Virus record (IMG/VR): IMGVR_UViG_3300032893_000025
Span: 1 to 64,000 of that record
Length of the DNA stretch: 64,000 nucleotides
From: a virus
Strand: one strand, 5' to 3'
The notes below the pieces were generated by a model, which saw only the letters and a list, made by a program, of their open reading frames with translations, had not been told where the DNA came from and made no database searches. Made by a program: the position numbers and the translations under genes. This document shows, in pieces, positions 13,573 through 19,000 of this stretch. The first letter of the stretch is position 1, and every line of letters starts with the position of its first letter.

Positions 13573-14253
13573 ATGAAAATATTAATAGTAGGTGATGTAC
13601 ATGGAAGAAGTAATTGGGAAAATTGGATAGATGATTCTTATGATAAAATAATATTTGTTGGAGATTACGTAGATCATTGGACTATAAGTAATATGAGAAT
13701 TATTGAAAATCTTAATAACATCATATATTTTAAAAAAGATAATCCTAATAAAGTAATATTATTATTAGGCAATCACGATAACCAGTATATGTTTAGCTAC
13801 TCTTCTCATGGATGTAGTGGGTTTAGATCAGAATCTTACTTTGATTTACATGAACTATTCAACAAAGAAAAAGATTTGTTTCAAGCAGCCTACCAGATAG
13901 ATAATTATTTATTTACTCATGCTGGAGTATCCCAAGAATGGTTTGATAGAGAATACCCCTATAAACCTAAATTAAAAAATTTAGCTGAATCTTTTAATAC
14001 AGCATTTAAAATGAAAGAAAGAAGTTTATTTGATGTTGGATATTCAAGAGGAGGATTTCAAGGTGTAGGCGGAATATTTTGGGCTGATAGAAAAGAAACT
14101 CAATCAAATATGCTAATTGATATACATCAGGTTGTAGGGCATACTCATATAGATAAAATAACCACATATTATTTAAATAATGATACTAATTCTAATACAT
14201 CTATAACTTATACAGATTGTGAAAATAGTCCCTATATTTTAGAAATAAATTAA
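13573..14253 (+). CDS. calcineurin-like metallophosphoesterase
   Basis: GDVHG, GDYVD, GNHD, THAG and VGHT motifs. Confidence 0.9.
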   Translation: MKILIVGDVHGRSNWENWIDDSYDKIIFVGDYVDHWTISNMRIIENLNNIIYFKKDNPNKVILLLGNHDNQYMFSYSSHGCSGFRSESYFDLHELFNKEKDLFQAAYQIDNYLFTHAGVSQEWFDREYPYKPKLKNLAESFNTAFKMKERSLFDVGYSRGGFQGVGGIFWADRKETQSNMLIDIHQVVGHTHIDKITTYYLNNDTNSNTSITYTDCENSPYILEIN

Positions 14254-14270
14254 AAACAATTGAAAAATTA

Positions 14271-14302
14271 TTTGGAAGTAATAAAAATATTTTGTAAGTT
14301 TG
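14271..14302 (+). promoter_or_regulatory. Bacteroidota sigma-A-type promoter for tRNA array 1
   Basis: TTTG (14271-14274), 20-nt spacer, TAAGTTTG (14295-14302); matches the TTTG-N19-21-TAnnTTTG consensus. Confidence 0.8.
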
Positions 14303-14306
14303 TAAA

Positions 14307-14378
14307 ATGAATTTGATAATACGACATATAGAACAACCCCAAGAGCCAATAATTATTGGAAGGAAGAACTATATGTAA
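14307..14378 (+). CDS. leader peptide 1 (23 aa, MNLIIRHIEQPQEPIIIGRKNYM) of the tRNA-array attenuator
   Basis: ORF starts right after the promoter; codons 4-15 correspond only to the six downstream tRNAs; its 3' part is the antiterminator strand. Confidence 0.8.
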   Translation: MNLIIRHIEQPQEPIIIGRKNYM

Positions 14379-14430
14379 AAGATATGTTTTGATTTTGTTT
14401 TTAATTAGACAATACACCCCTTCCAGTAGT
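14352..14430 (+). promoter_or_regulatory. antiterminator helix of attenuator 1
   Basis: AUUAUUGGAAGG (14352-14363) pairs over 12 bp, two of them G-U, with CCUUCCAGUAGU (14419-14430), the 5' arm of the terminator. Confidence 0.75.
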
Positions 14431-14455
14431 GAATACTCGAAGGGGTTTTTATTTT
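14416..14455 (+). terminator. intrinsic terminator (attenuator) before tRNA array 1
   Basis: ACCCCTTC-C-AGTA-gtgaa-TACT-C-GAAGGGGT followed by TTTTATTTT, ending 2 nt before the first tRNA. Confidence 0.85.
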
Positions 14456-14457
14456 AA

Positions 14458-14528
14458 CGAGAGTGGGTTGTGGTGGTAGCATCCTGCACTTGGAATGCAG
14501 AGGGGTAGTTCAATTCTAACATTCTCGA
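14458..14528 (+). tRNA. tRNA-Pro(UGG)
   Basis: Acceptor CGAGAGT/ATTCTCG; anticodon arm CTGCA-CT TGG AA-TGCAG. Confidence 0.85.
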
Positions 14529-14535
14529 CAAATAT

Positions 14536-14607
14536 ACTCAGTTCTTCTAATGGTCAGGAAGGTTGTCTTATACACAACTAATTAAAGTTCAAGTCTTTAA
14601 CTGAGTA
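14536..14607 (+). tRNA. tRNA-Ile(UAU)
   Basis: Acceptor ACTCAGT/ACTGAGT, A73; GTTGT-CT TAT AC-ACAAC; T arm TAAAG-TTCAAGT-CTTTA. Confidence 0.85.
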
Positions 14608-14615
14608 CAATATAT

Positions 14616-14687
14616 GGTGTTTGAAGCATTAATGTGATGTGCTTGACTGTGAATCAAGAGAAGATGGGTCAGTACCATCCTTACACC
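14616..14687 (+). tRNA. tRNA-His(GUG)
   Basis: G-1:C73 pair; CTTGA-CT GTG AA-TCAAG. Confidence 0.85.
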
Positions 14688-14692
14688 CAAAT

Positions 14693-14764
14693 GCTACGTT
14701 CGGCAAGTGGTAAGCCACCAGACCTTCAATCTGGTTATCGTGGGTTCGAAACCCACACGTAGTA
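14693..14764 (+). tRNA. tRNA-Glu(UUC)
   Basis: Acceptor GCTACGT/ACGTAGT; CCAGA-CC TTC AA-TCTGG; GTGGG-TTCGAAA-CCCAC. Confidence 0.88.
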
Positions 14765-14770
14765 CTAAAT

Positions 14771-14843
14771 TGGGATTTAGTGTAAATGGAAACCACACAA
14801 GACTTTGACTCTTGTAATGTAGGATCATACCCTACAGTCCCAA
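14771..14843 (+). tRNA. tRNA-Gln(UUG)
   Basis: Acceptor TGGGATT/AGTCCCA; CAAGA-CT TTG AC-TCTTG. Confidence 0.88.
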
Positions 14844-14848
14844 CTAAT

Positions 14849-14923
14849 AGGAATATAGCTTAATTGAATCAAAGCCCTTGTCTACGAAACAAGAGAGTAT
14901 GGGTTTGAGTCCCATTATTCCTA
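14849..14923 (+). tRNA. tRNA-Arg(ACG)
   Basis: Acceptor AGGAATA/TATTCCT; CTTGT-CT ACG AA-ACAAG. Confidence 0.88.
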
Positions 14924-14961
14924 CAAAGTTAAAAAATACTTTAAAAATAAATACTAAAATA

Positions 14962-14993
14962 TTTGGATGTAATAATAAAATTTATTATATTTG
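14962..14993 (+). promoter_or_regulatory. Bacteroidota sigma-A-type promoter for tRNA array 2
   Basis: TTTG (14962-14965), 20-nt spacer, TATATTTG (14986-14993). Confidence 0.8.
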
Positions 14994-15010
14994 TAGAATA
15001 AAATTAAACA

Positions 15011-15091
15011 ATGCAAAGAAGAAATTGGAATATGGTAGCCATTAATGACGGTAAAACAGGAGTTTACTGGAAGGGGAAATTATATTCTTAA
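15011..15091 (+). CDS. leader peptide 2 (26 aa, MQRRNWNMVAINDGKTGVYWKGKLYS) of the tRNA-array attenuator
   Basis: Codons 3-18 cover exactly the 11 amino acids of the downstream tRNAs; codons 20-27 form the antiterminator strand. Confidence 0.8.
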   Translation: MQRRNWNMVAINDGKTGVYWKGKLYS

Positions 15092-15120
15092 TTTAAATAA
15101 GAAATTATAAGTGCCCTTCC
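15069..15120 (+). promoter_or_regulatory. antiterminator hairpin of attenuator 2
   Basis: GGAAGGG (15069-15075)/CCCTTCC (15114-15120), with nested TTATA/TATAA and TTCTTA/TAAGAA helices. Confidence 0.75.
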
Positions 15121-15143
15121 CAAAAAGAAGGGTTTTTTATTTT
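15113..15143 (+). terminator. intrinsic terminator (attenuator) before tRNA array 2
   Basis: GCCCTTC-ccaaaaa-GAAGGGT followed by TTTTTATTTT. Confidence 0.85.
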
Positions 15144-15147
15144 ATAT

Positions 15148-15219
15148 TGGTTAATAACTCAATGGTAGAGTACTTCTCTGATACAGAAGAGGCTGTAGGT
15201 TCAAGTCCTACTTAACCAA
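15148..15219 (+). tRNA. tRNA-Ile(GAU)
   Basis: Acceptor TGGTTAA/TTAACCA; CTTCT-CT GAT AC-AGAAG. Confidence 0.88.
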
Positions 15220-15225
15220 CAATAT

Positions 15226-15294
15226 TGCGGGTAGTTCTGGTGAACCCCTAGTCTCATAAGCTAGTCAAGAAGAGATCGTAACTCTTACCCGCAA
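15226..15294 (+). tRNA. tRNA-Met(CAU); elongator versus initiator uncertain
   Basis: Acceptor TGCGGGT/ACCCGCA; CTAGT-CT CAT AA-GCTAG; short D arm; lacks the three G-C anticodon-stem pairs of initiators. Confidence 0.75.
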
Positions 15295-15301
15295 CTAATA
15301 A

Positions 15302-15374
15302 GGGAGTGAAGCTAAAGTGGGATAGCTGTGGCCTGTTAAGCCAAGGGGTGTAGGATCATTGCCTACCTCTCCCG
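15302..15374 (+). tRNA. tRNA-Asn(GUU)
   Basis: Acceptor GGGAGTG/CTCTCCC, G73; TGGC-CT GTT AA-GCCA. Confidence 0.85.
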
Positions 15375-15384
15375 CAGTACAAAT

Positions 15385-15456
15385 GAATCATTGGTGTAAT
15401 GGATAGCACAGGGGTCTTCTAAGCCCTTAGAAAGAGTTCAAATCTTTTATGATTCG
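15385..15456 (+). tRNA. tRNA-Arg(UCU)
   Basis: Acceptor GAATCAT/ATGATTC; GGGGT-CT TCT AA-GCCCT. Confidence 0.88.
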
Positions 15457-15466
15457 CTAAATACAT

Positions 15467-15536
15467 TGAGGCACTCATAGGAGTGATAAGCAATCTCCAA
15501 AATTGTGACTTATAGGTTCGAGTCCTGTTGCCTCTG
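15467..15536 (+). tRNA. tRNA-Trp(CCA)
   Basis: GAGGCA/TGCCTC acceptor, G73; GCAAT-CT CCA AA-ATTGT; ATAGG-TTCGAGT-CCTGT. Confidence 0.82.
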
Positions 15537-15541
15537 CTAAT

Positions 15542-15616
15542 GGTTTTGTAGGCCTCTTGGTGAGGAGCTTGACTGTCACTCAAGCAGAATAGAGGGATCG
15601 TACCCCTCCAGAACCG
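15542..15616 (+). tRNA. tRNA-Asp(GUC)
   Basis: Acceptor GGTTTTG/CAGAACC, G73; CTTGA-CT GTC AC-TCAAG. Confidence 0.85.
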
Positions 15617-15622
15617 CGATAT

Positions 15623-15694
15623 GGGCCACTAGCATAAAGGATAATGCTCCTTACTTGCAATGAGGAAGATAGAGTTCGAGTCTCTGTGTGTCCA
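15623..15694 (+). tRNA. tRNA-Ala(UGC)
   Basis: G3:U70 alanine identity pair; CCTTA-CT TGC AA-TGAGG; irregular lower acceptor stem. Confidence 0.82.
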
Positions 15695-15764
15695 CTAATT
15701 CTTTATCTTTGATAGGAAATCCGTAAAGGTCTCAAATACTGAACCAGTTAATCAGTATTTAAAT

Positions 15765-15836
15765 GCAGATATAGCACAATGGCTAGTGCGTCTGGCTTCC
15801 ACCCAGAGGATGTGGTTTCAATTACCACTATCTGCT
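15765..15836 (+). tRNA. tRNA-Gly(UCC)
   Basis: Acceptor GCAGATA/TATCTGC, U73; TCTGG-CT TCC AC-CCAGA. Confidence 0.9.
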
Positions 15837-15841
15837 CTAAT

Positions 15842-15913
15842 GCACCTTTAGTATAATGGTTATTATTTTTCCTTTGTAACGAGAAGATGAGGATTCAATT
15901 TCTTCAAGGTGCT
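15842..15913 (+). tRNA. tRNA-Thr(UGU)
   Basis: Acceptor GCACCTT/AAGGTGC; TTTCC-TT TGT AA-CGAGA with a C31:C39 mismatch. Confidence 0.78.
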
Positions 15914-15917
15914 CTAT

Positions 15918-15988
15918 GACTCTTTAGCAAAGCGGATATGCTCCACTCTTTTAAAGTGGCGGGAATGGTTCAACTCCATTAAGAGTCA
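15918..15988 (+). tRNA. tRNA-Lys(UUU)
   Basis: Acceptor GACTCTT/AAGAGTC; CCACT-CT TTT AA-AGTGG. Confidence 0.88.
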
Positions 15989-15994
15989 CAAAAT

Positions 15995-16070
15995 ACTTCC
16001 TTAGCTCAGTTGGTTTAGTAGCACTTGTTTTACACACAAGATGTCAAAGGTTCGAATCCTTTAGGAAGTA
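15995..16070 (+). tRNA. tRNA-Val(UAC)
   Basis: Acceptor ACTTCCT/AGGAAGT; CTTGT-TT TAC AC-ACAAG; AAAGG-TTCGAAT-CCTTT. Confidence 0.92.
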
Positions 16071-16090
16071 CAAAAAATTTGTGTCTCAGA

Positions 16091-19000
16091 TTATTTATTT
16101 ATTATCTGTTGTGTCAATGACTGAATTCTTGCAGTAGTATTAGTTAAAGGAAACCAATTCTTTATAGCTACCCAAGTTTTAGATTGATCCTTATAAATTC
16201 CTTGATGATACATATCATCCCCTCCTGTTATTAATGTTGTAGCTCTTGCTAGTACTTTTTCTGTATCAGTAATTACTTTAGCCATTGGTAAAGGATCTCT
16301 TAATATAGTTTTAAATTGAATAGGATCAATATAAAAATCTATATCCATCTGCATCCTATTAAGTTGATTAATCCAGAAGAAAGATAAATATTTTATATCA
16401 GATTCATCATCGTCATCATTTAAAATGACTCCTTTAATTAATAAAGCCAATGCTGTAACAGCTATCATAGACATTATTTCTGTTAAATTAGCTCTCATAT
16501 TAGCAGCATCTACATCATCTAATCTAGACAAATTAGTTTTCTGAAAAGCTATTTTTCTTAGTAACTGTAATGTACCGTTAAATACCCCACCAAAGTAGCC
16601 ATATCTATCAAAAAACTGCCCATAACTTCTCCATCTACCTTTCTGTTCAATACCACTAATAGGATTCACCTTACCAGCGTCCATTTGTCCAAGTCTTGTA
16701 TAATATGCATTAATCATCCATTTTCTAAATACTAATAAGGATCTTCCTAATATTGTTGAATTAGCAGGTATTGGAGAGTCTGGATCATAGTTACCATGAA
16801 TATCTTTTATAACCTTATCTATCTTTAATTTAGTATTTGCCTCTAAATTTGATGGCATTTCAACTCCATTTAATAATTCTCCATTATCATTATAAGCTTC
16901 AAATAAAGATATATCTTTTCCATTTAATTTAACTTTAGTGTTTAATAACATAGCTATCATTACAGGAGCCTGATTTAAATATTCAGATCTACTCTGTAAT
17001 GTAAAGGGAGCTAACCAATTAATTCCTTTTTTAACTCTTTCAGATACATATATTTCATTTTGTAGTTCTTTTAGAGTATCATATCTATCCATTAAATGTC
17101 TAACTTTATTCATTTGAGATAAGGTTAAGTTATACCCTTTATGAAGCTGAGCATTATTAAATCTTCTACCATCAGAGCCTTCTATAAGATTATTAACATA
17201 GCCCACTGTGGAATTCATTATAGGGGAGAAAAAATTCCATCCTAATCCCTTTAATCTAACCCACATATTAAGTTGGTCTCCAATTTTAGAACCTGCTTTT
17301 ACTCCTCCTAATTCAGATAATTGCTTTTCTAATTTTCTATCTATTTGTAGAAATTCTTTCTTAGTTATGTTATGTTCATCAAAATCTTTTATGTTTTGAG
17401 CCTTTAAAGCCTCTATTTCTTCTCTTACTTTTTGCTCTTTGGATGTATATACTTTTTTTCCAAATTTTAATTCTACCTTATGCATAGCTTCTCCATAAAA
17501 CTTCTTCATAAAATATTCTACAGAATCTTTAAAGTTATTCAATCCTTTCTTAGAGATAGGATCTCCATATTGGTCATTTATAACTTCACCAGCATTATTA
17601 GTTTCTTGTTCTAAAGCATTATTAATAATACCCTGAGTAATACTCATAGCATCCTCAATTTTAGCTTTATGTTTAAACCCAATAGCCATTAATGAATAAG
17701 CTTTTACTAGTTTTTCTAAATCATTACTTCTTTCATTAGCAACCTGATCTTTAATTTCTCTAGTCCATTCTTGTATTTGTTCTACAGTTGGAGTATTTCC
17801 AGTTTGTTGTTTAAGTTCTAAAGACTTTCTGAATATATAATCTTTAATTATTTTATCAATATTGGTTATATATCTTACTCTTAACTCTCTTTCTCTCTCA
17901 CCTTCAACATCTCTTTTTTCACTAGATTCTGTAGTTACAGATCCTTTAGTTCTTATACTTTCTTTCCATAAATCCCATATAGGAGTTAACCCACCACTCA
18001 TACCATTTTGGGTATACTGTTCTATTAAAGTCTTTTCCATAAAAGGAAGAGTATTAACCTGAAACTCTTCGGTCATATCTGATGGTAAATAAGAATTTAC
18101 TTCATGTAGAGTATCTATGATATAGTTATATAAAGCTAATAGCTTATCATTGTTTTCTATTTTTTCAAAGTTTTTATCATAAAATTCAGTATTCTTGCCA
18201 TTAACAATTCTTCTAGGTACAGTCTTTGTATATCTATTGCTTGGGGTTATATAATCTCCTGCTACTTTTTGTATAGTACCTTCAAAAAAGTTTTCTGCAA
18301 CTAAATAAGGACTAAATTTAGCATCATATTCTCTTATTTTTATTTCCTTAGCAGCATCTTCTAGTAAATCATCGTCTAATTGAGATATAAAAACATCTCT
18401 ATCATCTTTAAATTGTTTAAGTTGCTTTTCAGCAGCTTCTAAATAAAATTTATATCCTTTTTGTCCCAAATTAGTTATTAATTCTTGTCTGTGATTCTGT
18501 ATATCACTATCACTAAAGCTATTTTCATATAAATCCTTATTGGGAAACAATTTTCTAGCATCTAACATTAGAGAGTATTTCTTAGTTTCCGTAATATAAT
18601 CTCTAATAAGTTTATTTTTTTGTTTTCTTCTTTCTTCTGGGTCAGCAATTTCATCAGCAAGGTTTAATTCTTTTTTAAAATTTCTGCTTCTAGCTTTATT
18701 CCAATCGAAATAAGCTTGGGTATATCTATAAGTTAAATCTCCAGTTTTCCTATTATCTGTATTACTTGCTCTTTGAGCAAACAATTCATTAATATCCTTT
18801 TTACTATAAGATTTACCTATTTCTTTAAATACATCATCTAAACCATCAAATACATACTTAGCTTCTTTATGTGTTTCAAAGCTTGCTTCCTTATTCCATA
18901 CAAACATACTTTTAGCTAAGATATTATCTGTTTCACTAATATCTAAAGTAAGACTTGTTAATTTACCAACATCTGTTAGTAAAGCTTTATAATCAACATT

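Follow-up and report, generated by a model that had tools for sequence, protein, structure and literature searches.

Two arrays of tRNA genes in the phage genome studied here are each preceded by a short open reading frame, and the codons of each leader correspond to the tRNAs encoded directly downstream, by tRNA species as well as by amino acid. Counted over this phage and two others, and on the assumption that U34 reads every codon of a four-codon box, a tRNA species has a cognate codon in its own leader in 62 of 65 cases, whereas a foreign leader of the same phage holds one in 1 of 88, namely ATT ATT in leader 1 described below. Each leader is probably a ribosome-mediated transcription attenuator with test codons chosen per tRNA species.

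The phage and its tRNA genes

The analyzed stretch of DNA (the window) is 64,000 nt of a 79-kb IMG/VR virus record that was obtained from a wetland metagenome and has a G+C content of 29%. The giant virion proteins encoded there, together with IAS virus as the nearest match at the DNA level, place the source phage among the crAss-like phages. The 17 tRNA genes lie in two arrays between a plus-strand block, which has two metallophosphatase genes at its end, and a minus-strand block of huge virion genes. A scan of the record (1-79335, 82% complete) found no tRNA genes beyond these arrays; a third cassette (Leu, Ser, Tyr, Phe, Cys), should one exist, would lie in the missing part of the record. 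Two wetland DNA sequencing runs contain the stretch, and one contig spans 14200-14937 with zero differences, so there is no microdiversity that could be used. A lookup of sequencing runs found no RNA run containing the stretch, and a blastn comparison of the arrays with cultured phages returned generic tRNA similarity only. The arrays, as called with ARAGORN and Rfam, are as follows:

14458..14924, + strand, array 1, six tRNAs
14458-14529, + strand, tRNA-Pro(UGG)
14536-14608, + strand, tRNA-Ile(UAU)
14617-14688, + strand, tRNA-His(GUG), relaxed ARAGORN thresholds only
14693-14765, + strand, tRNA-Glu(UUC)
14771-14844, + strand, tRNA-Gln(UUG)
14849-14924, + strand, tRNA-Arg(ACG)
15148..16071, + strand, array 2, eleven tRNAs
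15148-15220, + strand, tRNA-Ile(GAU), first gene of the array
15226-15295, + strand, tRNA-Met(CAU), relaxed ARAGORN thresholds only
15302-15375, + strand, tRNA-Asn(GUU)
15385-15457, + strand, tRNA-Arg(UCU)
15467-15537, + strand, tRNA-Trp(CCA), relaxed ARAGORN thresholds only
15542-15617, + strand, tRNA-Asp(GUC)
15623-15693, + strand, tRNA-Ala(UGC)
15765-15837, + strand, tRNA-Gly(UCC)
15842-15914, + strand, tRNA-Thr(UGU), labeled Tyr by ARAGORN
15918-15989, + strand, tRNA-Lys(UUU)
15995-16071, + strand, tRNA-Val(UAC)

Default ARAGORN and Rfam thresholds miss the His, Met, and Trp tRNAs, which relaxed thresholds recover; all three have weak or short D-arms and odd T-loops, and the Met and Trp genes gave no Rfam match at E up to 1. 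At 15842-15914, the ARAGORN call of Tyr(GUA) was rejected in favor of Thr(UGU), because the gene is 73 nt long and lacks the long variable arm that bacterial Tyr tRNAs have; the anticodon UGU is given both by the Rfam alignment and by alignment with the Thr tRNAs of two other phages. The gap between tRNA-Ala and tRNA-Gly (15694-15764) holds a 9-bp hairpin (AAATACTGA ... TCAGTATTT) that could be a processing site or a remnant; no tRNA was found there, relaxed thresholds included.

Leaders built from the codons of their own arrays

Both leaders are short open reading frames, presumably translated, each placed between a promoter-like site and its array:

14307..14378, + strand, leader ORF 1, 23 codons and stop, precedes array 1
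14316..14351, + strand, sensing codons of leader 1 (codons 4-15), including ATA four times and CGA
15011..15091, + strand, leader ORF 2, 26 codons and stop, precedes array 2

In leader 1, ATA occupies codons 4, 5, 8, and 15, CGA codon 6, CAT codon 7, ATT ATT codons 16-17, and AGG codon 19. Its codons 4-17 are drawn from Ile, Arg, His, Glu, Gln, and Pro alone, a run of 14 that covers all six amino acids of array 1 and has a probability bound of 5e-8. Leader 2, with AGA AGA at codons 3-4 and ATT at codon 11, is restricted over codons 3-18 to the 11 amino acids of array 2 (a run of 16, coverage 11/11). The codons at the very start fall outside these sets: Asn and Leu at codons 2-3 of leader 1 and Gln at codon 2 of leader 2 are without a matching tRNA in the array that follows. 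When the 700 short ORFs of the window are ranked for the amino acid set of one array, the leader of that array comes first, and the cross-comparison of leaders with arrays is strongly diagonal at the amino acid level. At that level, the match exceeds chance overwhelmingly.

Terminators and competing folds

The order of promoter-like site, ORF, terminator, and tRNA leaves no space for a further promoter:

14271..14302, + strand, promoter-like site 1 of Bacteroidota type (TTTG, 20 nt, TAnnTTTG), found by pattern search as a consensus match only, ends 4 nt before the ATG of leader 1
14335..14345, + strand, AACCCC and GAG segments of leader 1, predicted to pair with the 3' arm of terminator 1 (14442-14447 and 14436-14438) in the read-through fold
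14352..14363, + strand, antiterminator strand of leader 1 (codons 16-19, ATT ATT GGA AGG), 12-bp helix with 14419-14430 in the minimum-energy fold
14416..14456, + strand, intrinsic terminator 1 (stem 14416-14423/14439-14446, inner stem, T-run), ends 2 nt before tRNA-Pro
14962..14993, + strand, promoter-like site 2 of Bacteroidota type, found by pattern search as a consensus match only, 17 nt before the ATG of leader 2
15022..15036, + strand, region 1 of leader 2, predicted to pair with 15079-15094 in the ribosome-free fold, whereupon the terminator forms
15069..15075, + strand, antiterminator strand of leader 2 (GGAAGGG), predicted to pair with 15114-15120 (CCCTTCC)
15113..15143, + strand, intrinsic terminator 2 (stem 15113-15119/15127-15133, then T-run), ends 4 nt before tRNA-Ile(GAU)

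The promoter motif is not more frequent in the window than chance predicts (5 vs. 3.1 expected). An extended motif, TTTGGA[AT]GT ... TAnnTTTG, is common to both leaders and to an ordinary gene at 77748-77810 (minus strand) of the 79-kb record. Given the 4 nt between the promoter-like motif and the ATG, the mRNA of leader 1 may be leaderless.

Because the terminators end 2 to 4 nt before the first tRNA, the tRNAs can be transcribed only through a terminator. The hairpins have predicted energies of about -17.5 kcal/mol (terminator 1) and -9.5 kcal/mol (terminator 2). The partner of the leader 1 antiterminator strand, 14419-14430, is the 5' arm of terminator 1. The earlier note had cautioned that ATT ATT and AGG fall late in leader 1, inside the antiterminator strand, and this caveat is exact, as 14352-14363 is the 12-nt strand itself. 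The rare codons CCC and GAG of leader 1 likewise have a structural reason in their pairing with the 3' arm of the terminator.

The effect of ribosome position on these folds was calculated with an equilibrium model only. For leader 1, free RNA or a ribosome at codons 2-6 is predicted to give the antiterminator, codon 7 is intermediate, and from codon 8 onward, or at the stop, the RNA would be mostly in the terminator form at equilibrium; with the ribosome on codons 16-19, P(terminator) reaches 0.98. For a stall at codons 8-13 to permit read-through, the first-transcribed strand would have to prevail by its usual kinetic advantage. For leader 2, a stall anywhere at codons 4-15 is predicted to hold P(terminator) at or below 0.03, codons 3 and 16 give values in between (0.28 and 0.57), and the terminator returns from codon 17 to the stop. 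As modeled, leader 2 has the full classical layout and leader 1 a simpler one.

Isoacceptors within the window

Ile and Arg tRNAs are split across the two arrays, and the leaders follow the split just as the earlier note had claimed: read directly, ATA (four times) and CGA stand before Ile(UAU) and Arg(ACG), and AGA (twice) and ATT before Ile(GAU) and Arg(UCU). All 17 tRNAs of the window have a cognate codon in their own leader, and the sole cross-match, ATT ATT of leader 1, falls within the antiterminator strand. Two codons, GCC in leader 2 and CCC in leader 1, can be decoded by their own array only if U34 reads C, which is known for cmo5U in tRNA-Pro of Salmonella. Reading of CGA would require deamination of A34 to inosine in tRNA-Arg(ACG), whose UACG anticodon-loop context appears to be the one used by TadA.

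Taken alone, the window is only suggestive of a match by isoacceptor. Its evidence amounts to two binary choices, which partition alone would produce in 1 case in 4, and, with the amino acids given, the own array can decode no more codons overall than chance predicts (60 vs. 60.1 expected). The joint probability of the split is 0.0024 when only the Ile codons upstream of the antiterminator are counted, 0.012 with all six Ile codons of leader 1, and 0.028 without them. On these figures, the attenuators could be real and yet work at the amino acid level only, with the Ile/Arg split produced by ordinary codon usage and chance; in the phage genes, ATA (54%) and ATT (43%) are the commonest Ile codons and AGA (83%) is the commonest Arg codon. 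The strongest item against this reading in the window is CGA, with only 12 occurrences among the 837 Arg codons (1.4%) of the phage genes, all ACG-readable codons together reaching 7%. The comparative data bear on it further.

Leaders of other phages

Relatives were sought through the neighboring 1198-aa protein, which identified 45 loci in IMG/VR, only one of them with arrays; the closest protein relatives (Logan/ENA) have about 54% identity. For relatives of the window's cassettes, IMG/VR was scanned for the terminator/antiterminator pattern, with 0 matches; a scan via the upstream metallophosphatase gave none. No homologue of the window's own leaders was found by the IMG/VR pattern scan or the neighbor-protein searches, and homologous leaders were compared in the other two lineages.

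The first of these is represented by G030, a distant crAss-like phage (33% identity) that is complete at 99.8 kb and carries 24 tRNAs and three cassettes of like design. One of its leaders, with CGA and AGA together with TCA and AGT, precedes Arg-ACG, Arg-UCU, Ser-UGA, and Ser-GCU; a second, with TTA/TTG and CTT, precedes Leu-UAA and Leu-UAG. Gln, Arg-ACG, Arg-UCU, Gly, Thr, and Lys sit in different cassettes in G030 and in the window phage, and their codons are found in whichever leader precedes them. Two G030 leaders never allow read-through in the equilibrium model. The arrays of G030 (L049 1849-11265) are interspersed with protein genes, whose putative products, judged by eye, include caspase-like and radical-SAM-like proteins, and one attenuator may gate mRNAs as well.

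The second lineage is that of Caulobacter phage phiCbK, in whose GC-rich genome two cassettes have leaders with the rare codons TTG, AAA, CTT, and CAA matched to dedicated tRNAs. Some of its sub-arrays are without a convincing leader; for instance, a short ORF and hairpin precede Glu/Asp of array 1 (L063 1082-1178), and Glu/Asp codons are not clearly enriched there. The two Lys tRNAs (L063 3141-3324) have lengths of 87 and 91 nt and, unusually for Lys, long variable arms, and ARAGORN misreads the anticodon register of several phiCbK tRNAs (Asn as "Ile aat", Arg-ACG as "Arg cct").

Setting tRNA species against distinct codons, pooled over the seven leaders of the three phages, gave P = 0.03 to 0.01. 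Homologous leaders provide a separate line of evidence. Seven phiCbK-like leaders have equal length and were compared; an eighth, that of Ccr10, was excluded for an insertion of 3 codons. Among the seven, alternative codon states are nonsynonymous in 19 cases and synonymous in 1, and 17 of the 19 nonsynonymous states remain within the amino acid set of the array (P = 4e-5). TTG, AAA, CTT, AGC, TCC, CCC, and ACC, each diagnostic of one isoacceptor, are invariant in all seven. Within the G030 clade, two phages have leaders of different order and length before the Thr...Ser array, but both keep CGA with AGA and AGT with TCN; another leader keeps ATA with ATT or ATC (ATA+ATY) in five homologues, and CAA with CAG is kept in 4 of 5, their positions exchanged between G030 and the other three. 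The earlier note had named conservation of amino acids with free codons as the pattern that would count against it. These lineages present the opposite, in that isoacceptor-specific codons are kept and the order of amino acids drifts.

Further, CGA occurs in all three leaders whose array holds Arg(ACG) (in the window, in G030, and in L081), despite its rarity among Arg codons of the window phage. This, the single cross-match in 88 comparisons, and the persistence of rare isoacceptor-specific codons in phiCbK-like leaders whose amino acids change make it unlikely that the match stops at the amino acid, even though decodability is at chance overall and ATA, ATT, and AGA are the commonest codons of their amino acids. 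We thus agree with the claim in the earlier note that the leaders follow tRNA species beyond amino acids, given the counts of own and foreign cognate codons, the relocated genes, and the codons of homologues. The design is not universal in crAss-like phages: such leaders are absent from the arrays of crAss001 and IAS virus, which were read, and no leaders were found at the single tRNAs of other relatives.

Both halves of codon boxes

It had also been proposed that several amino acids appear with two codons as if two host isoacceptors were being probed. Every one of the pairs in question (CCC/CCA, GAA/GAG, GGT/GGA, and GTA/GTT) is found in the leaders. However, in the window the number of distinct synonymous codons is not above chance (P = 0.37 and 0.63), and the second codon of each pair overlaps a predicted helix, CCC and GAG pairing with the 3' arm of the terminator and GGT and GTT overlapping a local hairpin, so RNA structure explains the window's pairs equally well and the probing claim is not supported as it was put. 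What is supported is a wider pattern: with seven leaders pooled, 82 distinct synonymous codons are found vs. 72.4 predicted from codon usage (P = 0.001), and rare codons are enriched (P = 1e-4), ending in G/C in the AT-rich phages and in A/T in GC-rich phiCbK. Raised codon diversity is a real property of the family. It could reflect probing of host isoacceptors, testing of both reading modes of a phage tRNA, or slowing of the ribosome.

The helices raise the broader question of whether RNA structure (the antiterminator and accessory helices), and not decoding, mainly dictates which synonymous codons the leaders use, with the use of both halves of codon boxes a by-product. In leader 1, ATT ATT GGA AGG, AACCCC, and GAG are indeed part of helices; in leader 2, a helix overlaps GGT and GTT; and codon diversity in the window is at chance. 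Over seven leaders, both distinct and rare codons are raised, and the bias of the rare codons reverses with genome composition; further, CGA lies outside any helix within the likely transcript, and CAA and CAG trade places between homologues with both kept. We therefore regard control by structure as improbable for the leaders at large.

Proposed mechanism

From the anatomy, alternative folds, statistics, and comparative pattern observed here, we infer leader translation, stalling, read-through, and feedback. The promoter would direct transcription into the short leader ORF. If the ribosome stalled at an early codon because the decoding tRNA was lacking, the antiterminator strand near the end of the ORF would pair with the 5' arm of the terminator, and RNA polymerase would continue into the tRNA genes. 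A ribosome that reached the end of the ORF would cover the antiterminator strand, and the terminator would form 2 to 4 nt before the first tRNA gene. As the products of the array would decode the test codons, the circuit would constitute negative feedback on decoding capacity, resolved to tRNA species. Such feedback closes only if the leader codons are readable by the leader's own array, hence ATA/CGA before Ile(UAU)/Arg(ACG) and ATT/AGA before Ile(GAU)/Arg(UCU). More tentatively, and at a level we would not yet call probable, unrelated phage lineages (crAss-like phages and Caulobacter phage phiCbK) may run their tRNA genes as closed-loop homeostats, in which each species is reported by its own codon and the loss of a single species is detected and repaired. 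Host anticodon nucleases, or the decay of host tRNAs after shut-off, could be the cause of such loss.

The signal proposed in the earlier note, loss of specific tRNA species rather than amino acid starvation, follows from this feedback as an argument from logic. To a stalled ribosome, a missing and an uncharged tRNA are indistinguishable, and the anatomy is that of classical attenuators, so the leaders might sense starvation as those do. However, extra tRNA would bring no relief of amino acid starvation, and by the same logic there would be no feedback; the leaders name as many as 11 amino acids, each by 1 to 3 codons, instead of runs of a single amino acid, and their codon boxes follow the isoacceptor genes. 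We consider starvation sensing a poor candidate. Finally, that these are chance short ORFs beside ordinary terminators, with no regulation at all, is barely credible: the promoter motif count fits it, but the codon runs have probabilities of 5e-8 to 1.5e-3, depending on the leader, each leader is first of 700 short ORFs for its own set, and the same design, with complementary antiterminator strands, recurs in seven leaders of three phages.

Relation to known systems

The window contains a short leader ORF, matching control codons, an intrinsic terminator, and, as modeled, a competing antiterminator, all expected of an attenuator; the regulated genes are tRNAs, and not enzymes of amino acid biosynthesis or aminoacylation. 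The leaders work like members of the leader-peptide attenuator family and differ by cargo and logic. The thr leader (Thr, Ile) and the ilvGMEDA leader (Ile, Leu, Val) are multivalent enterobacterial leader-peptide attenuators of amino acid operons. Like the phage leaders, they combine a short ORF, control codons for several amino acids, and a terminator/antiterminator pair decided by ribosome position. Their cargo is biosynthetic enzymes, whereas that of the phage leaders is tRNA genes, whose product would act directly on the sensed step, and, unlike them, the phage leaders cover 6 or 11 amino acids, with between 1 and 4 codons per amino acid. In the leu operon leader of Salmonella, the control codons are rare CUA codons, and the attenuator's sensitivity depends on which synonymous codon is used as well as on the amino acid. 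The phage leaders are likewise enriched in rare codons, but the leu leader repeats one codon for one amino acid, whereas the phage leaders allot codon boxes by the isoacceptor gene downstream. The leader of pheST (pheM) is a leader-peptide attenuator of phenylalanyl-tRNA synthetase and in this sense also stands over a component of the translation apparatus; its cargo is a synthetase for one amino acid, with no tRNA gene product. T-box riboswitches sense a specific tRNA by codon-anticodon pairing and respond by antitermination, binding the uncharged tRNA directly without a ribosome. Antitermination is specific to tRNA species in both T-boxes and the phage leaders, the former being ribosome-free and the latter ribosome-based if they attenuate as proposed. 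A cmscan search of 14000-16400 at E up to 1 did not find a T-box (Rfam RF00230), only tRNA and chance matches.

A literature search found no leader-peptide control of tRNA genes, and the phage-tRNA literature it returned does not use the word attenuator. The nearest system in print is the trn operon of Anabaena sp. PCC 7120, a silent tRNA array induced by translational stress, with direct repeats and the repressor TrcR at its promoter (PMC8421152, PMC10272220). There, too, an accessory tRNA array is switched on when translation is impaired, but control is at the promoter; attenuation is mentioned in neither paper, and a leader is not mentioned in PMC10272220. What this analysis adds is the resolution to tRNA species and comparative evidence for that resolution.

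The purpose of phage tRNAs has been debated for 50 years, between codon compensation and escape from tRNA-cleaving defenses (PMC10264068, PMC11555353). If the proposed mechanism is true, the phage gauges how well each codon can be decoded and supplies the tRNAs that match; the leader then tells which codons the phage expects to run short, and the question of why phages carry tRNAs becomes testable, with phiCbK as a cultured system of the same design. Such leaders would also be ready-made reporters of single-tRNA depletion, and, as parts of homeostats shared by unrelated phages, they would add a new class of regulated cargo to attenuation and a direct counter to tRNA-targeting immunity. The phage keeps tRNA-Arg(ACG) (14849-14924) although CGN codons make up only 7% of its Arg codons (60/837); codon compensation does not explain this gene, and a role in escape from defense is possible.
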